A stretch of DNA of 11,035 bases from a virus, in the UHGV virus genome UHGV-0227640, one strand, 5' to 3'. Under the pieces are notes generated by a model that was not told the origin of the DNA, did not search any database, and saw only the letters and a list, made by a program, of their open reading frames with translations. The position numbers and the translations under genes were made by a program. This document shows positions 602 through 10,307 of this stretch, piece after piece; within the stretch, counting starts at the first letter, position 1, and every line of letters begins with the position of its first letter.

Positions 602-1747
602 TTATTTTTGTTTTATGGTAAATGAAATAACATTGTCAGAATGAATCATATCTGATTCTTTAAATCGTGTAATTGCAGATAACTCATTTAAGGGAAGAGC
701 AAAGATATCAGTTAACTCAGTTACCTTTATGATTGAATGCTTATCAAGAAGTAAAAGTAACTTATTAAGTAACTCAGGCTCTTCTTTTGGGATTGCATCA
801 TCTAACGGCTCCCTACGATGGAATGGCGCTAATTGCTTAAATATATAGCTTTTCTGATTATCGCTGATTAACTTAAGGCTATGACTCCTCATGGCAATAC
901 TACCGATAGATGTAATCCAACGTAGTTTTAATCGTTCTAACGCTGATAAATTTGGACTATAAAATTCACGCCCGAAAGTGGTGGCTGGCATTAAAAAGCT
1001 GGAGGCAAAATAATCGGCCTGCAACTCCACCAGGTCGAATAATTCTTTATCATTCAGGTAGTCATCCTCCACTGCCCTATGCATAATTAAATGGCCAAGT
1101 TCATGAGCAAGACTAAATCGCATGCGAACAGCCGTCTTCGAGCTATCTAACATAATTAAAGGCCGCCCATTATGCCAGAACGAAAAGGCATCAACTTTCT
1201 CACCAGAAGGTAAATGAGAAACCACGATTCCTTTATTTTCAACAAGTCTAGTTAAATTGAGTATTGGACCATCACCTAACCCCCAAAAACGCCTTAATTG
1301 GGTGGACATATCCTCAATATCAGATAGAGACAGAACCTCAAAATCAATAATATCGAATTCAGGCAGAACCACATCTGGTAATTGAGCATATTTTAGACAT
1401 TCATCCAATATTAATGCCGCCCAACGCCCACGTGTTTTCCCTGTAACTCGAGCCTTTTTGGTCGCAGTTGAACGACTTCTAAAATGAATCGCCCCCTCCA
1501 GAGATGGAGAAGCACTGGAGGCTAAGAAAAATCGTTCTGGAAATCCTAACACCTTGGCTATTGCAGAAAGTGTATCAGCAGAGGGAGACTTCAACCCCTT
1601 CTCAAATGACGAAATAGCTTGTCTTGAAATATTGAGCACTCTGGCAAGTTCAGCCATCGTCAACCCTTTTGCCTCTCTTGCCTCCTCAAGGCGACGAGGA
1701 TTAAACGATTTATCAGTAAATGGTGTTTGTGCGATATTCATGCTCAT
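602..1747 (-). CDS. XRE-family HTH fused to ImmA/IrrE-type (COG2856 / M78-like) zinc metallopeptidase; candidate antitoxin/regulator
   Basis: 381-aa ORF. N-terminal XRE HTH (GLTMAELARVLNISRQAISSFEKGLKSP). HEXXH motif HELGHLIMH at about residue 232, as in the ImmA/IrrE family. Start ATG overlaps the upstream stop (ATGA at 1744-1747). Terminator follows. Confidence 0.85.
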   Translation of the reverse strand: MSMNIAQTPFTDKSFNPRRLEEAREAKGLTMAELARVLNISRQAISSFEKGLKSPSADTLSAIAKVLGFPERFFLASSASPSLEGAIHFRSRSTATKKARVTGKTRGRWAALILDECLKYAQLPDVVLPEFDIIDFEVLSLSDIEDMSTQLRRFWGLGDGPILNLTRLVENKGIVVSHLPSGEKVDAFSFWHNGRPLIMLDSSKTAVRMRFSLAHELGHLIMHRAVEDDYLNDKELFDLVELQADYFASSFLMPATTFGREFYSPNLSALERLKLRWITSIGSIAMRSHSLKLISDNQKSYIFKQLAPFHRREPLDDAIPKEEPELLNKLLLLLDKHSIIKVTELTDIFALPLNELSAITRFKESDMIHSDNVISFTIKQK

Positions 1748-2358
1748 GATTGCTGTGATTTAATTATTTGTTCGGTAAGAATCTTGATTTTATCTTCAAT
1801 CTCAGAATCCACATTTTCTGCTTCAACTTCTACCATCGTCATAATTGGTAAAGACTCAGTATAAAGAATCCCGTAATTATCCGAAGAAGGAACAGTTAAA
1901 TTCAGTTTGGACAAGTGCTGATTACTGCCATCATGTAACATATAAACATGTCCACCAGACGCTCTCCCATCCAGGGAGTCGGCATTTTCATCCCCAAAAT
2001 TCAATTCATAATTTTGATTAGCGTAAACAGCTCTATACAATGCCTGCTTAGGAAGTGGCGCATTACCCGATAAATGATGTGCCGTCATTTTCCAGTTGTT
2101 CGAGTGAATCGCAATGTGTTTACAATTTTTAGCAGCATTGCTACCGACTTCAAAATCCAGCCCCACACGCTTAGCCGCATTCTCAAGCAATGCATCGGCA
2201 TAAAACCAGCGCAAATATGACTGTGCTTGAGCCCAAAAAGAACCAAACTCTTTTGCCTTCATATGCGAATGAAGATAAGCCTGTGCTAACGCGATCGAAA
2301 GCTCTTTGCGGCACTCCTTGTCATATGCTTCTAACAACTGTTGAGATAAATTCTGCAT
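1744..2358 (-). CDS. Hypothetical 204-aa protein, first gene of the operon; candidate toxin/effector partner of the HTH-peptidase
   Basis: 204-aa ORF. AAGGA about 12 nt upstream of ATG at 2358. Stop overlaps start of downstream gene. No transmembrane segment or catalytic motif I recognise (His/Asn-rich centre HIAIHSNNW...HHLSGN...GGHVYMLHDGSNQH, acidic C-terminus). Visibly more A+T-rich than the phage core genes. Confidence 0.75.
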   Translation of the reverse strand: MQNLSQQLLEAYDKECRKELSIALAQAYLHSHMKAKEFGSFWAQAQSYLRWFYADALLENAAKRVGLDFEVGSNAAKNCKHIAIHSNNWKMTAHHLSGNAPLPKQALYRAVYANQNYELNFGDENADSLDGRASGGHVYMLHDGSNQHLSKLNLTVPSSDNYGILYTESLPIMTMVEVEAENVDSEIEDKIKILTEQIIKSQQS

Positions 2359-2524: not shown

Positions 2525-2680
2525 TTACTCCTCAGGTTCGTAAGCTGTGAAGACAGCGACCTCCGTCTGGCCGGTTCGGATTCGTACCTCGCAGAGGTCT
2601 TTCCTCGTTACCAGTGCCGTCACTATGACGGTTAAACAGATGACGATCAGGGCGATTAACATCGCCTTTTGCTGCTTCAT
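2525..2680 (-). CDS. hokD: Hok/Gef-family type I toxin (small membrane-depolarising peptide), HokD/RelF-like
   Basis: Not in ORF track (51 aa). Manual translation of minus strand 2680->2525: MKQQKAMLIALIVICLTVIVTALVTRKDLCEVRIRTGQTEVAVFTAYEPEE. AAGGAG 9 nt upstream. From memory this matches HokD (RelF) of E. coli K-12. No relB/relE upstream. Confidence 0.8.
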   Translation of the reverse strand: MKQQKAMLIALIVICLTVIVTALVTRKDLCEVRIRTGQTEVAVFTAYEPEE

Positions 2681-6910: not shown

Positions 6911-7092
6911 GTTGATGCTCTCCCGCCCCTGACAGACGCCAGGCCAGTCAATAAAGTATCCGCACAATGCCTACCCTCAGACGTGCGCGCAGGATAAATG
7001 CCGTTATGACCCGGCAAAATATATGCTACCCATTCATCTTGCGTTGCCTGTTCCGCCGCCTCGCGCAGTGCCTGATAGTCAATCTTGCTCAC
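6907..7092 (-). CDS. Ea22-like N-terminal fragment (61 aa); truncated paralog or 5' part of a frameshifted gene spanning 6467-7092
   Basis: GTG start at 7092. MSKIDYQALREAAEQATQDEW matches the N-terminus of the 249-aa Ea22-like protein. DNA at 7040-7092 is about 80% identical to 6421-6470. Confidence 0.45.
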   Translation of the reverse strand: MSKIDYQALREAAEQATQDEWVAYILPGHNGIYPARTSEGRHCADTLLTGLASVRGGRAST

Positions 7093-7573
7093 TGGTCGCC
7101 TCCTTCATAAAAATAATCCAGTGGGTCTTGTCACCCTTTCCTGTTCGTTGACCGATAACAGGCTTTCTGTCGGTCAGTGCCAATATCTGGCGAACAGGTA
7201 TTTGCGTTTCATTCCATTTAAAAATCAGAACGCTGTATGGCCGCAACACACGAAAGGCTTCTTTAAATCCCTGCCGCAAATCATCACGCCAGGTATCTTT
7301 ATTCAGCCGTCCATATTTCTTTCCCATCCAGGCGTTATCACCAACACGCTCAAGATGCGGAGGGTCGAATACAACAACCGGAAACGATGCGTCTGCAAAT
7401 GGTAATGCACGAAAATCTGCTATCAGGTCAGGGCTAATTATCAGTCTTCGTCCATCACATAATGTGTGCTCTTCCTTTCTGATATCGCTAAATATCGCCC
7501 GGTCGTCATTCTTATCGAACCAGAACATGCGGCTGCCACAGCACATATCAAGAATGGTTGCCGGTGCACTCAC
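7079..7573 (-). CDS. Small SAM-dependent DNA methyltransferase (orphan; N6-adenine or N4-cytosine type)
   Basis: 164-aa ORF. Motif I-like ILDMCCGSRMFWFD near the N-terminus and motif IV-like VVVFDPPH. GTG start overlapping the upstream stop (GTGA). No adjacent restriction enzyme gene. Confidence 0.6.
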   Translation of the reverse strand: MSAPATILDMCCGSRMFWFDKNDDRAIFSDIRKEEHTLCDGRRLIISPDLIADFRALPFADASFPVVVFDPPHLERVGDNAWMGKKYGRLNKDTWRDDLRQGFKEAFRVLRPYSVLIFKWNETQIPVRQILALTDRKPVIGQRTGKGDKTHWIIFMKEATSEQD

Positions 7574-7992
7574 TGCGCTACCTCCTGAAAATTACCCTGA
7601 TAAAACGACAATATGCGCTGCATAACTTCGCTCTTCCGGCACTCGCGACAGATTATGTTCTGACGCCTGTCGTAGCGGCGTATTTCGCCGTCTGGTAATA
7701 GCCAGATAAGGTCCGGATCAACCACAGATGGTTTCTTCAGCTTTGCCCTTGAGAGTTTTTTGCGGGCGTTTTGCCAGTCCTTGCGCGCCTGCTCAGACGG
7801 GAATACTCCGTAACCGGAATTGTAAACATCACCACTGGCGGCCAGCTCCATGCATAAACGACCGACAGACGCATGACTGACACCAATTTCATCCGATAAC
7901 TGCCGAATCGTGCCTCGTCCGTTAAGGCGTACGAATTCCACGATCAGCCCTTTAATTTTTTCCCGCTCTTCTTGTGTAAAAACTTTTGCCAC
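7570..7992 (-). CDS. HTH (winged-helix-like) DNA-binding protein, 140 aa
   Basis: ORF-track ORF. GTG start with GGAGG 5 nt upstream. HTH-like segment GTIRQLSDEIGVSHASVGRLCMELA. Confidence 0.6.
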   Translation of the reverse strand: MAKVFTQEEREKIKGLIVEFVRLNGRGTIRQLSDEIGVSHASVGRLCMELAASGDVYNSGYGVFPSEQARKDWQNARKKLSRAKLKKPSVVDPDLIWLLPDGEIRRYDRRQNIICRECRKSEVMQRILSFYQGNFQEVAQ

Positions 7993-8032
7993 AAGCCCTC
8001 CTGAAAATTACCTCATGACCAGAAATTAACAC

Positions 8033-8995
8033 TTACCCCCTGAAGCCCGGCGGAATTTCAGTGTCCGGTTCAGAAATGTGATTCACGCAACGCTGCGCAG
8101 GCGAACGCCCCAGGCGGATAACCAGTTCATCCCATTTTTCCCGGAGTTTTGCCGGACTCATGATGTTTTTTACCCAGAACGAATCCCGCTGGAGACGCCC
8201 AAACATTTCACAAATTTGTCTGTGAGTTCTGCCATCCAGCATCCGCATTGTGCGAACGTCATTGGCCCATGCTGTCCAGTTGGGTTCTTTCGGTCTAGTG
8301 ATCTCGCCATCATAGCTGGCCGCCTGCTCGTAAAGACTCACGATTCGTCCCCAGATCCACTGTGCGCACACCAAATCTTCCTGACTTCCCCACTGGCGTT
8401 TTTTCGCACTGAACACAACCGCGTCAGGGTGTCGGGTTAAAAAATCCTGTTCAGCCGTCTGCGGGTCCGGTTGCGAAGCGTCCGGACAAGAAGATCTTTT
8501 ATCTGACGGATCAGGTTTTAATACTGACGGATCGGGGTCAATCATCGGCCCCCTAATCGGCAGTTTTTTATCAACAGTTGATCCATCAAAATTTGACGGG
8601 TCAACCGTTGAGGGGTCAATATTTGACGGGTCAACTGTTAACGGGTCATTTTTTGCCGGGCTAATTTTTCTTTTCGGTTTATATGACTCACGCGCCGCCG
8701 CCGCAGCTGCTTCGAGTTTTTCCACATTAAGCCGATAGATATTGCTTACATTACGCCCACCGACCTTACGCTCTTCCTTCGTCAGCCAGCCCTCTTTCGC
8801 CAGTTCTGCAATAGCCGATTTCACTGTGGATTCACTTCTTGCACCGATCTGACGCCGGATAGTTTCAATGGCAGGCCATGACACGCCCTCGTCATTGCTG
8901 TAGTCTGCAAGACGGGCCATAACCGCCACCCTGGATAAGATCATGCCGGTGAAGGCGCACCCTTCCCAGACAAGACCATGAAGCTTGCTGCTCAT
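8033..8995 (-). CDS. Phage replication initiator (lambda O-like): N-terminal winged-helix DNA-binding domain, repetitive linker, C-terminal domain
   Basis: N-terminus ...MARLADYSNDEGVSWPAIETIRRQIGARSESTVKSAIAELAKEGWLTKEER. Linker with repeats DPLTVDPSNIDPSTVDPSNFDGSTVD encoded by the DNA iterons. ATG at 8995 with a G-rich SD preferred over GTG at 9010. Confidence 0.75.
   Translation of the reverse strand: MSSKLHGLVWEGCAFTGMILSRVAVMARLADYSNDEGVSWPAIETIRRQIGARSESTVKSAIAELAKEGWLTKEERKVGGRNVSNIYRLNVEKLEAAAAAARESYKPKRKISPAKNDPLTVDPSNIDPSTVDPSNFDGSTVDKKLPIRGPMIDPDPSVLKPDPSDKRSSCPDASQPDPQTAEQDFLTRHPDAVVFSAKKRQWGSQEDLVCAQWIWGRIVSLYEQAASYDGEITRPKEPNWTAWANDVRTMRMLDGRTHRQICEMFGRLQRDSFWVKNIMSPAKLREKWDELVIRLGRSPAQRCVNHISEPDTEIPPGFRG
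8500..8690. repeat. Iteron array plus A+T-rich segment: putative phage origin of replication inside the initiator gene
   Basis: About six copies of TGACGG(G/A)TCA and variants at 8504, 8525, 8594, 8609, 8624 and 8638, some spaced 15 bp apart, followed by the A+T-rich stretch 8649-8685 (TTTTTTGCCGGGCTAATTTTTCTTTTCGGTTTATATG). Confidence 0.55.
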
Positions 8996-9017
8996 AAAAC
9001 CCCCGAACACCGTGCTT

Positions 9018-9443
9018 TTAGTGCATCACCACAGCATTCCCTGCCGGGCCGCCGCGATTCATCTGGTCATACAAAACAACCGCTGACGCAACAAAATCAT
9101 CGACATCCTTCACCAGCCGATCCCTCCGTTCGACGATCTCACGGTAATATTCAGAACTGTGGCTGCGCATACGGGCCACCAGCAAAGGCGGCATCGCCTT
9201 TTCGATCGCCGGTAACAGAGCCTGCATTTTTTCAACAGCATCAGGGGTGTCTTTATCCAGCCAACGGAAAATTTTCTGGGTATTACGGGCCAGGGCTTCC
9301 GGATGGCTGTCGTCATACAGTTCCGGGAACGTCATTCCCAGCTCGAAATACGCTTTGGTAATTTTCGCAGCCGGCACTTTTTCGCCGTCCGGATGCGCCC
9401 AGACATTCATCGCCATGCGGATGTGTTCATGCTTGATTTTCAT
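9018..9443 (-). CDS. YdaT-like (CII-like) regulatory protein, 141 aa
   Basis: ORF-track ORF MKIKHEHIRMAMNVWAHPDGEK.... The position (between the Cro-like and replication genes) and the N-terminus resemble E. coli Rac YdaT as I recall it. Confidence 0.6.
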   Translation of the reverse strand: MKIKHEHIRMAMNVWAHPDGEKVPAAKITKAYFELGMTFPELYDDSHPEALARNTQKIFRWLDKDTPDAVEKMQALLPAIEKAMPPLLVARMRSHSSEYYREIVERRDRLVKDVDDFVASAVVLYDQMNRGGPAGNAVVMH

Positions 9444-9708
9444 GAATCAAGCTCCTAGAAAGTGGTTGTGTTAACGTTTTGGTATCTTCCAGCTCGGGCC
9501 AAATATTCATCCAATCAAAAGGCCTTAGTTGCTGACGTGTAACTTCACCATTACTGGCTCGCTCAATAAGGACACATAACGATGCCCCTAACACTTGACC
9601 TTTACTCAATGCCTTTCTTAGATAACCGATGCTGGTACCACACTCGCATGCAAACATACGCTGTTCATCTGACGAAAGAGAATTGAGAAATATTCTTAAT
9701 TCTTCCAT
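9427..9708 (-). CDS. Cro-like / YdaS-like HTH regulator, 93 aa
   Basis: ORF-track ORF. AAGGAG 6 nt upstream of ATG at 9708. HTH-like segment CECGTSIGYLRKALSKGQVLGASLCVLIERAS. Divergent from the repressor gene. Confidence 0.7.
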   Translation of the reverse strand: MEELRIFLNSLSSDEQRMFACECGTSIGYLRKALSKGQVLGASLCVLIERASNGEVTRQQLRPFDWMNIWPELEDTKTLTQPLSRSLIHENQA

Positions 9709-9732
9709 AGCTACTCCTTAGTAAACACAGCA

Positions 9733-9802
9733 AAGAATACCCACAGGTAAACAAAAGTCAATACCCACAGGTTGTTTACCTTGCGGTAATCGCATCTATT
9801 AT
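9733..9802. promoter_or_regulatory. Immunity switch: divergent promoters with operator-like sites
   Basis: Sites TACCCACAGGTA (9738-9749) and TACCCACAGGTT (9762-9773), 24 bp centre to centre. Inverted repeat AGGTAAACAA / TTGTTTACCT (9746-9755 / 9771-9780). Leftward promoter TTGACT (9761-9756), 16 bp, TATTCT. Rightward TTTACC (9775-9780), 16 bp, TATTAT (9797-9802), placing the transcript start at or next to the ATG at 9809 (leaderless, no SD). Confidence 0.5.
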
Positions 9803-9808
9803 TTACCT

Positions 9809-10228
9809 ATGGACAAATATGAATTTAGACGACAGCAACTCATCAAAATTCGTGATGAGAAATGCGATGGTAAAGCGGTTAACGTGGCCAGAAAGATCGG
9901 GCGCGAGCCTTCTTATGTATCAAGAATGTTGTACCCAGAGGGGAAAAAGGGAAAAAAACGGATCGCTGATGATATGGTGGAGATTATCGAAGAGTCCTTT
10001 GGGTTACCCCGGGGATGGATGGATGGTATCGTTTCATCATCAACGAACACAGCCTCCAGTTATGAAACAAGGGTTCTAACGCCACGACAACGTATTTTTT
10101 TAGATCTCTTAGACGAACTGCCAGAAAGTGAAGCGGATAAATTATTAAAAACTCTTGAAGAGAAAAAACAGTATTACAATATGATCTACGAAGAAATCCG
10201 TAAAAAGAAAGCACAAAACGCATCATAG
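9809..10228 (+). CDS. Prophage repressor-like HTH protein (positional equivalent of CI/DicA/RacR), 139 aa
   Basis: ORF-track ORF. HTH-like segment AVNVARKIGREPSYVSRMLYP. C-terminal ...LDELPESEADKLLKTL resembles the DicA C-terminal region as I recall it. No S24 peptidase domain. Confidence 0.7.
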   Translation: MDKYEFRRQQLIKIRDEKCDGKAVNVARKIGREPSYVSRMLYPEGKKGKKRIADDMVEIIEESFGLPRGWMDGIVSSSTNTASSYETRVLTPRQRIFLDLLDELPESEADKLLKTLEEKKQYYNMIYEEIRKKKAQNAS

Positions 10229-10270
10229 CTCACCAAACAACTAGTCACCAGTTAAGACACCGCAAAAATT

Positions 10271-10307
10271 TACCCATGGGTATTTACTTTTTAAATACCT
10301 ATGGGTA
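10271..10307. promoter_or_regulatory. Second pair of operator-like sites upstream of the ydfA-like operon
   Basis: Perfect palindrome TACCCATGGGTA (10271-10282) and TACCTATGGGTA (10296-10307), 25 bp centre to centre, same consensus as the sites at 9738-9773. Confidence 0.4.

Follow-up and report, generated by a model that had tools for sequence, protein, structure and literature searches.

An 11,035-nucleotide stretch of the virus genome UHGV-0227640 (the window, by which we mean the whole stretch analysed, at its full length) carries at 8033-8995 on the minus strand what is very probably a lambdoid replication initiator gene with its origin inside it: a cluster of iterons lies within the coding sequence, the encoded protein has a C-terminal domain of the lambda O type followed by a tail of the DnaT type, and no phage loader gene accompanies it. 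Taken as a whole, the sequence evidence points to an origin of the oriLambda type whose initiator probably uses a DnaC-type helicase loader, here that of the host. Recruitment of the host DnaB-DnaC through the C-terminal region of the initiator is likewise a probable reading, and the tail itself is put forward, more tentatively, as the direct docking site. The gene and its parts are:

8033-8995, minus strand: replication initiator coding sequence, 320 residues, O-like (stop codon 8033-8035; phrog_391 over the full length)
8681-8995, minus strand: putative N-terminal winged-helix origin-binding domain, residues 1-105 (Pfam HTH_36, AlphaFold2 model)
8480-8674, minus strand: sequence coding for the disordered linker, residues 108-172, which holds the iterons and is the proposed origin core (model confidence below 50)
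8102-8464, minus strand: helical C-terminal domain, residues 178-298, homologous to the lambda O C-terminal domain
8036-8098, minus strand: disordered C-terminal tail, residues 300-320, AQRCVNHISEPDTEIPPGFRG, the same as the E. coli DnaT C-terminus; proposed docking peptide for a DnaC-type loader or DnaB-DnaC

The coordinates 8033-8995 are those of the coding sequence annotated by NCBI in an identical E. coli prophage (WP_000095675.1), and the start was placed at the ATG at 8995 rather than at the GTG at 9010 because the homologues all begin with MSSKL or MSTKL. PHROGs assigned the protein over its full length to phrog_391, 'replication initiation O-like' (E = 4e-115). The only Pfam family found was HTH_36, at residues 30-76 (E = 2.2e-6), and NCBIfam gave no family call, its sub-threshold matches being confined to the helix-turn-helix (HTH) region and the tail. 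The N-terminal domain is thus not Phage_rep_O (PF04492), which lambda O and Gifsy-1 O do match. In an AlphaFold2 (AF2) model built from a 34-sequence alignment, residues 1-105 are folded (predicted local distance difference test score, pLDDT, 74-91), residues 108-172 are disordered (pLDDT below 50), residues 178-296 form a confident helical domain and the tail at residues 300-320 is again disordered. The winged-helix domain is the most conserved part of the family. Its Foldseek matches were winged helices of the PaaX, MarR and PadR types; when the full model was searched against PDB, all matches came from this domain and none from the C-terminal domain.

The C-terminal domain search suggested in the preliminary description of this DNA revealed both a lambda-O-type domain and a DnaT-type tail. 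Residues 153-300 of the initiator align by BLASTP with residues 145-277 of lambda O (35% identity, E = 5e-26), the two proteins having in common the blocks WG..EDL..A.W and PN...WAN[DE][IV]R.M...DGR.H...C..F......FW..N..SPAKLR.KW. The homology stops just short of the tails. In classical lambda genetics it is the C-terminal part of O that works with P. Over its whole length the initiator is 37% identical to O of the viable phage LLS, which has an N-terminal domain of the same family.

The preliminary description had placed TGACGGRTCA iterons within the initiator gene, and this was confirmed. Eight copies with at most one mismatch occur in the 11-kb window against 1.13 expected (none of 200 shuffles reached eight), and seven of the eight fall in 8504-8648. 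The sequence TTGANNNNTCAA occurs four times against 0.32 expected, always within 8578-8634. A repeat search resolved five units at an exact 15-bp spacing in 8571-8660, together with isolated copies at 8503-8515 and 8524-8536. The repeats and the A+T-rich stretches beside them are:

8571-8660, no strand: iteron array of five to six head-to-tail 15-bp units (unit TCAAnnnTTGACGGG on the plus strand; core TTGACGGGTCAA, dyad-symmetric)
8504-8513 (TGACGGATCA) and 8525-8534 (TGACGGATCG), no strand: two distal iterons, each with a GATC, encoding near-invariant DPS motifs
8565-8594, no strand: most A+T-rich 30-mer of the gene, 77% A+T, at the promoter-distal edge of the array; a weak candidate unwinding element
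8662-8691, no strand: second A+T-rich 30-mer, 73% A+T, at the promoter-proximal edge of the array

Read on the coding strand (...NDPLTVDPSNIDPSTVDPSNFDGSTVD...), the array encodes DPLTV DPSNI DPSTV DPSNF DGSTV and the distal copies encode DPDPS and PDPS, in agreement with the DPS and TVD peptide repeats noted earlier. Each unit makes up five codons in the coding orientation (e.g., CCG TCA AAT ATT GAC for PSNID) and the units are dyad-symmetric, TTGACGGGTCAA having 5-bp arms, or equivalently TCA and TGA triplets alternating every 7-8 bp. In the homologue alignment, D155, P156 and P163 of the DPS motifs encoded by the distal iterons are invariant, and S157, D162 and S164 are at least 90% conserved. 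The disordered segment of the model coincides exactly with the repeat-encoded part of the protein. An adjoining A+T-rich stretch had also been described; this holds only weakly and is the least secure part of the description, for the gene's two richest 30-mers do flank the array but are short.

The repeats are conserved in related initiators. Across 78 homologous genes from different species, mostly three to five 15-nt units (range 0-8) stand at the same place, with the consensus TCAAAATCTGACSCR, several positions of which are more than 90% conserved. The homologues differ in length in steps of five residues (320, 315, 310, 305), which indicates that the copy number of the unit varies. The encoded pentapeptide drifts among them (SNIDP, SKSDP, SKSDA, SNSDA). 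Serine codons in the linker are TCA in 50% and TCT in 33% of cases, compared with 17% and 9% outside it, and proline codon usage did not differ between the linker and the rest of these 78 genes. Selection on the peptide alone would not produce this bias to TCA. From these comparisons, the repeats behave as iterons and not just as a peptide linker.

Furthermore, the repeat type follows the family of the N-terminal domain. HannyBb, with a different N-terminal domain and the same C-terminal domain, has repeats with a 23-bp period; Gifsy-1 O, with a Phage_rep_O domain, has 22-bp lambda-like repeats; and LLS O, whose N-terminal domain is of the family found here, has 15-bp units like those in the window. 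The experimentally defined iterons of lambda occupy the same position within gene O. With repeats in the linker between a winged helix and a helical domain, conserved as DNA in 78 genes and varying with the N-terminal domain, the analogy to lambda ori inside gene O drawn in the preliminary description holds. Related phages share both flanks of this region, not the N-terminal domain and iteron segment itself: the matching stretch is 7503-8500, joined in seven of the ten best-matching records by a second one at about 9000-9456. The N-terminal domain and iteron segment is a classical lambdoid origin-specificity cassette.

Several minor features of the cassette were recorded. Tritos, Evi, vB_EcoM-606R7 and others show about 84-86% identity on both sides of it and none across it, and the mosaic breakpoint lies inside the linker, near the two distal iterons. 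A natural chimera in E. coli O4:H2 (P0071, 299 residues) has an N-terminal domain and iteron linker identical to those in the window joined to an unrelated C-terminal domain of the PhiR5_2 type, and still ends in NQRCVNHISEPDTEIPPGFRG. Four GATC sites (8493, 8509, 8530 and 8580) are clustered in or beside the iterons. The distal iterons read GATCCGTCA in five relatives inspected, and one of the two copies varies in three relatives (L025, L029 and L013). The gene immediately after the initiator codes in most relatives for a DNA methyltransferase (Dam-like, MT-A70, C5 or ParB-MTase); methylation may possibly control initiator binding. A DnaA-box-like sequence, TTTTCCACA, was seen at 8718-8726, some 60 bp away from the array. 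The window has just two matches to the DnaA box (TTWTNCACA), at 8718 and 7973, which is about the chance level, and for this reason dependence on DnaA is not argued.

The next gene downstream had been described as a 140-residue HTH protein in place of a loader of the P or DnaC kind, and this description was upheld. The two features that follow the initiator are:

7993-8032, no strand: initiator-DUF977 junction, 40 nt, the place of a dnaC-DUF1627 cassette in sister prophages
7570-7992, minus strand: DUF977 (LygF, 'Ren-like') protein, 140 residues, at the ren position; not a helicase loader

The 140-residue protein matches DUF977 (PF06163, E = 2.7e-31) and phrog_142, 'Ren-like exclusion protein' (E = 2e-43), and gives a weak HTH signal; Pfam, PHROGs and tblastn detected no AAA+ or Phage_lambda_P domain and no similarity to DnaC or P in it. 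When five DnaC proteins, a lambda P homologue and E. coli DnaB were used as tblastn queries, no match was obtained in the window, in 27 kb surrounding the identical prophage region or anywhere in the complete 45-kb genome of HannyBb, which has the same gene order of O-like gene, DUF977 and methyltransferase without a loader. The order is also the same in mEp460 and Tritos. DUF977 occupies the position of lambda ren, and it lies downstream in DnaC-encoding modules as well (75/02 Stx, PhiR5_2, ST13-OXA48phi12.4 and 40/80 IMG/VR contigs), being as frequent in these as in loader-less modules, while many loader-less relatives have methyltransferases or DUF1064 in its place. Its occurrence is thus independent of the loader, which makes it a poor candidate for the recruiter, a role that the preliminary description had offered it as one of two options. 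It is read here as a ren-position accessory gene with no part in loading.

The loader-less state is common among the relatives and no oddity. In a survey of 76 full-length relatives, one genome per species, a loader gene was sought within 4 kb and was present at eight loci, seven with lambda P homologues directly downstream and one with a DnaC/IstB-like gene. In the only paper found that mentions such modules, 34 of 314 lambdoid phages are reported to be O-only and their replication to be 'not yet understood'; phage LLS, which grows on E. coli K-12 and forms plaques, is one whose replication module consists of one O homologue alone (Zheng, Casjens, Davidson, Amundsen & Smith, Genome Res 2025, PMC12315714). 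That study offers no mechanism for O-only modules and makes no mention of the tail.

A scan of IMG/VR with the C-terminal domain yielded 80 contigs, all with 92% identity or more to the C-terminal domain and tail found in the window, so that only close relatives are covered, and two architectures emerged from them. In 51 contigs the initiator is followed after 7 nt by a DnaC-like gene, usually then by a middle gene of about 0.8 kb (read as DUF1627 by its position), and by DUF977 where the sequence extends far enough. In 28 of the 29 contigs without DnaC, the initiator is followed after 40 nt by DUF977, as in the window. Of the initiators that match the window's over all 320 residues at 99% identity or more, 28 are accompanied by the DnaC gene and 19 are not, and proteins that are 100% identical are found in both forms. 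Over the full length, the phage DnaC proteins share 49-51% identity with that of E. coli. Homology between the two forms breaks at the stop codon of the initiator and is regained some 10 nt ahead of the start of DUF977; since the breaks lie at gene borders, the two forms are alternative cassettes and not the result of a scarred deletion. A simple deletion of dnaC as the origin of the junction was ruled out, because only the loader-less form has the 40-nt spacer and because the breaks fall at gene borders.

The last part of the initiator differs from lambda O. Lambda O ends in ...KLDLTNTDWIYGVDL and the window's initiator in ...RCVNHISEPDTEIPPGFRG, its last 20 residues or so (...SEPDTEIPPGFRG) standing in place of the lambda O tail. 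DnaT of E. coli and of Klebsiella has a matching sequence at its very end (...VNTVSEPDSQIPPGFRG; 14 of 20 identical, E = 1e-7 by pairwise BLASTP), residues 159-179 (positions 159-179 of the NCBIfam profile NF002770). Four methods returned this match independently: NCBIfam, a sequence search of PDB (2ru8, 6aep, 9zbt_D), BLASTP and hhalign. The rest of the initiator showed no similarity to DnaT by BLASTP or hhalign, so that it lacks the DnaT N-terminal oligomerisation domain, and Pfam found in it no three-helix single-stranded-DNA-binding domain of DnaT (PF17948). Homology of the C-terminal domain body to a DnaT domain was also considered and was not detectable, hhalign against DnaT having aligned the last 17 residues only.

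The same tail was found on at least six unrelated initiator backbones. LLS O combines HTH_36 and Phg_2220_C with the tail IPEGFRG; the tail-bearing bodies of Gifsy-1 and SPN3UB are Phage_rep_O (by Pfam in Gifsy-1, by annotation only in SPN3UB); those of PhiR5_2, which has no Pfam domain, and 75/02 Stx end in exactly RCVNHISEPDTEIPPGFRG; and the initiators of Tritos, SPN1S and PAT1 bear the tail too. By this distribution the tail is a portable short peptide module. The loader-less SPN1S initiator has in addition the PF17948 DNA-binding domain of DnaT (E = 4e-18). In the host, dnaT lies 2 nt upstream of dnaC, a gap that parallels the 3-7 nt between phage initiators and phage dnaC genes.

The type of tail varies with the type of loader. 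In the species survey, tails of the form GFR(G/S/T/V) were present at 46 of 76 loci, and none of the 46 had P, DnaC or DnaB within 4 kb. At the seven loci followed by P, six tails are of the form ...W..(P)..(G/A)WE..L and one is lambda-like, ...NTDWIDGIENDL...; all seven fit the pattern W..G.(E/D)..L, lambda O itself ending in NTDWIYGVDL. A third class, with a W..IW helix, accounts for 21 of the 76 loci, all without a loader. Among the phage records inspected, the GFRG-tail initiator is followed by a DnaC-like gene in five (Gifsy-1, 75/02 Stx, PhiR5_2, SPN3UB and ST13-OXA48phi12.4), by no loader in seven (HannyBb, mEp460, Tritos, SPN1S, PAT1, ST11-OXA245phi3.2 and LLS) and by P in none. The association was seen on two different C-terminal domain bodies, and within the lambda-O-type body it is only the tail that switches with the presence of P. 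Tails of the third class end in an amphipathic helix (e.g., ...GRKAWAGIWQQAAEQAAREV); none of these 21 relatives has P, DnaC or DnaB nearby, and they make up a second kind of loader-less initiator, with no obvious partner. One relative (L060:3777-4679) ends in ...IPEGFNQNLPATNQGGTDDDFI, an acidic tip recalling the SSB C-terminus, and has a DnaC/IstB-like gene next to it (L060:4663-5412).

These results suggest the following course of initiation. The N-terminal winged helix would bind, as dimers, the dyad-symmetric 15-bp iterons in the DNA coding for its own linker (five in tandem and two distal), and the nucleoprotein complex would open nearby DNA, with help from early-operon transcription passing across the site, as happens at oriLambda; both binding and unwinding are proposed because of the oriLambda analogy and the evidence of repeat conservation. 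Helicase would then be delivered without a phage loader, by an initiator that has a disordered tail of about 20 residues in place of the P-associated tail of lambda O. Its C-terminal end would dock a DnaC-type loader or the DnaB-DnaC complex, the docked loader being in sister prophages the phage DnaC encoded 7 nt downstream and in the window the host DnaC. Recruitment of a DnaC-type loader together with DnaB by the C-terminal end is suggested by the co-variation of tail and loader and by the facultative dnaC cassette. The proposal in the preliminary description that the C-terminus recruits the host helicase is thus backed indirectly, by the lambda-O-type domain, the co-variation and the identical initiators with and without DnaC.

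Several observations weigh against this explanation. The 21 loci of the WxxIW class are loader-less as well, which means that a GFRG tail is not required for loader-less operation, and the co-variation counts are not phylogenetically independent. DopC, in which HTH_36 is joined to a DnaT C-terminal motif, is paired with the P-like DopE (PMC5509034), so a DnaT-like C-terminus and a P-type loader do not strictly exclude one another. For DnaT itself, Ducos et al. (2026) favour the N-terminal domain as the recruiter of DnaB/DnaC and call the mechanism unknown; that domain is lacking in the window's initiator. The sole role reported for the last 18 residues of DnaT, as PMC5314882 relates it from Szymanski et al. 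(2013), is in trimerisation. At the DNA level, the A+T-rich stretches are short and modest, with richer ones (85%) elsewhere in the window. Finally, several genes are annotated as frameshifted or incomplete in the identical prophage region of NZ_CP018957, which puts the activity of the prophage in doubt.

The trimerisation result leads to the alternative that the tail is a self-association element for the cooperative assembly of protomers on packed iterons, as in the DnaT trimer, and that helicase is recruited by the body of the C-terminal domain or by a host factor such as DnaA. DnaT without its last 18 residues forms a dimer instead of a trimer (same source), the tail is disordered in the AF2 model and the 15-bp spacing of the iterons implies tight packing; the DnaA-box-like TTTTCCACA at 8718 would suit DnaA, although boxes are at chance number. 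A pure oligomerisation element, however, would not be expected to change type along with the P gene while the rest of the C-terminal domain stays the same, nor to sit 2-7 nt upstream of dnaC in phages and host, and we consider this alternative unlikely. Mimicry of DnaT might instead serve to engage the restart primosome (PriA/PriB), with PriA-dependent, recombination-linked loading in place of direct docking of DnaB-DnaC at the origin. PriA is a docking partner of the DnaT C-terminal domain (PMC13377028), the O-only phage LLS has a Chi-rich genome and grows better with RecBCD (PMC12315714), and the solo initiator of SPN1S has the whole DNA-binding domain of DnaT along with the tail. But the window's initiator has the tail only, without the three-helix domain that contacts PriA and single-stranded DNA, the tail is not described within the PriA interface in the text consulted, and the link to adjacent dnaC genes would be left unexplained, so that engagement of PriA/PriB seems decidedly improbable.

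The doubt about prophage activity bears on a further alternative, that the module is a decayed remnant which lost the dnaC-DUF1627 cassette and does not replicate autonomously. Apart from the damaged genes in NZ_CP018957, it has in its favour that sister contigs with identical initiators have dnaC exactly at the junction. Yet the same junction and 40-nt spacer recur in 29/80 IMG/VR contigs, and 253 complete E. coli genomes have the surrounding region in one piece; instead of a scar the junction shows a clean boundary between modules, and it is the same in the complete phage genomes of HannyBb, mEp460 and Tritos. With all 46 species-level GFR-tail relatives lacking a loader, and the O-only LLS forming plaques, decay has very little probability. 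Very improbable too is the view that the repeats are a low-complexity pentapeptide linker expanded by slippage and that the real origin lies elsewhere: the encoded segment is indeed disordered, rich in Pro, Ser and Asp and variable in length, but conservation is higher in the DNA unit than in the peptide (SNIDP in the window, SKSDP or SKSDA in relatives, with the same TCAAAwTyTGAy core), the skew of serine codons to TCA and TCT is limited to the linker, the units are dyad-symmetric, and a distinct repeat type was seen at this place in each initiator family examined, among them lambda with its experimentally defined iterons. As for the DUF977 protein as the missing helicase recruiter, its place as the next gene of the same operon and its weak HTH signal speak for it; its equal presence beside DnaC, its absence from many loader-less relatives, the match to a Ren-like family and the lambda ren position leave it hardly credible.

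Compared with lambda O, oriLambda and P, the gene has the same setting after cro and cII in the rightward early operon, with a ren-position gene downstream, and encodes a similar two-domain initiator with a flexible linker, dyad-symmetric iterons in the linker-coding DNA and a homologous C-terminal domain. It differs in its N-terminal domain (HTH_36 rather than Phage_rep_O), in its iterons (15-bp units at 15-bp spacing rather than 18-bp sites at 20-24-bp spacing), in its tail (...IPPGFRG of the DnaT type rather than ...NTDWIYGVDL) and in having no P gene; of A+T-rich DNA, it has only the two 30-nt stretches of 73-77% at the edges of the array. It agrees with the O-only modules, of which LLS is an example (PMC12315714), in having a single O homologue gene in a lambdoid context and no helicase or loader gene. 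LLS O shares the N-terminal domain family and the 15-bp repeat type and ends in a similar tail, and is distinguished by its Phg_2220_C C-terminal domain and by a methyltransferase rather than DUF977 as the next gene. The modules of 75/02 Stx (Eru4, a Shigella phage), PhiR5_2, Gifsy-1 and SPN3UB have an identical or near-identical tail, and those of 75/02 Stx and PhiR5_2 also DUF977 downstream; unlike the window, all four have a gene for a DnaC-like AAA+ loader 3-7 nt past the initiator, whose body is in each case unrelated or different.

The likeness to E. coli DnaT (primosomal protein I) is confined to the last 20 residues or so and, in the sister architecture, to the position directly upstream of a dnaC-type gene; the initiator has neither the N-terminal domain of DnaT nor PF17948, and DnaT acts at forks via PriA/PriB and not at an origin. 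The iteron-plasmid initiators pSC101 RepA and R6K pi bring in the host DnaB-DnaC themselves, from iterons that are intergenic and usually accompanied by DnaA boxes. The window's gene resembles them in its winged-helix initiator, its iterons, the lack of an element-encoded loader and its presumed reliance on host DnaB/DnaC. It belongs to a different family, its iterons are intragenic and its C-terminal half is lambda-O-like. DopC has the same combination of HTH_36 and a DnaT C-terminal motif (Brezellec et al. 2017, PMC5509034); however, it is a domesticated chromosomal gene with no detectable iterons and a P-like partner, DopE, whereas the gene studied here is prophage-borne, has iterons and has no P.

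Iterons inside O genes are classical, and O-only modules are on record, although unstudied. Several such phage genes are labelled 'primosomal protein I', so annotation pipelines have already met the DnaT-like end. In the searchable literature we found no account of the tail as a portable module, of its co-variation with P as opposed to DnaC or no loader, or of identical initiators with and without the dnaC cassette; the homology of the C-terminal domain to that of lambda O, and the replacement of the lambda tail by one that matches DnaT, are new here. A literature search for the motif (PPGFRG, PGFRG, IPPGFRG) gave collagen-type matches only and none on replication, and no assigned partner was found in the literature on the DnaT tail. 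More speculatively, ...IPxGFRG might be a portable docking motif for DnaC or DnaB-DnaC, common to host DnaT and unrelated phage initiators, that lets O-only phages dispense with a loader gene. It could then be the contact, so far missing, through which DnaT passes DnaB-DnaC on to restart forks, and the dnaT-dnaC operon could be a domesticated phage initiator-loader pair minus the origin-binding domain, with the SPN1S-type initiator (DnaT domain and tail) as an intermediate form. We regard this set of ideas as conceivable rather than probable.

The window offers a clean test case, since a 1-kb gene is expected to be a self-contained replicon, natural sister alleles differ only by the dnaC cassette, and the type of a 20-residue tail predicts the loader. 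If the tail docks DnaC or DnaB-DnaC, this would explain how such phages replicate, including relatives in the genomes of Shigella serotype-converting and Stx phages, and it would bear on how DnaT recruits DnaB/DnaC in replication restart, the mechanism called unknown by Ducos et al. If the tail is not a docking site, the module is one more lambdoid mosaic variant.

The region around the initiator is the rightward early operon of a lambdoid (Rac-like) E. coli prophage. Positions 7000-10300 of the window are 100% identical to a prophage adjoining ompW in several E. coli chromosomes (e.g., NZ_CP018957); parts of the region were found in 4399 of 5426 complete E. coli genomes, and at least 80% of 7000-10300 in one place, spanning the initiator-DUF977 junction, in 253. 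On the minus strand the order of genes is a YdaS-family gene (cro position), a YdaT-family gene (cII-like), the initiator, DUF977, an S-adenosylmethionine (SAM)-dependent DNA methyltransferase and Ead/Ea22-like genes. The identical region in NZ_CP018957 has a repressor, cro- and cII-position genes, a Q antiterminator, RusA, an integrase and an excisionase, which indicates a lambdoid context. The neighbouring genes are:

9809-10228, plus strand: divergent repressor-like gene (phrog_5736; C-terminal DicA-like match)
9427-9708, minus strand: cro-position YdaS-family gene, upstream of the initiator in the same early operon (Pfam, PHROGs and the NZ_CP018957 annotation)
9018-9443, minus strand: cII-like YdaT-family gene, upstream of the initiator in the same early operon
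7079-7573, minus strand: SAM-dependent DNA methyltransferase

The genes at the cro and cII positions bear the Pfam names 'YdaS toxin' and 'YdaT toxin', and PHROGs lists them as a transcriptional repressor and a CII-like activator; the toxin names for the genes in 9018-9708 look doubtful in this context. In the left part of the window, 602-1747 (minus strand) encodes a 381-residue protein with an XRE-type HTH and an IrrE/ImmA M78 peptidase domain, overlapped and preceded by a 204-residue open reading frame at 1744-2358 (minus strand) that matched no Pfam family. At this place the otherwise identical NZ_CP018957 prophage has a DUF968 gene, a difference which indicates that the left part of the window comes from a different mosaic. 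A 51-residue type I toxin gene of the Hok/Gef family, annotated as hokD in a related genome, lies at 2525-2680 (minus strand).

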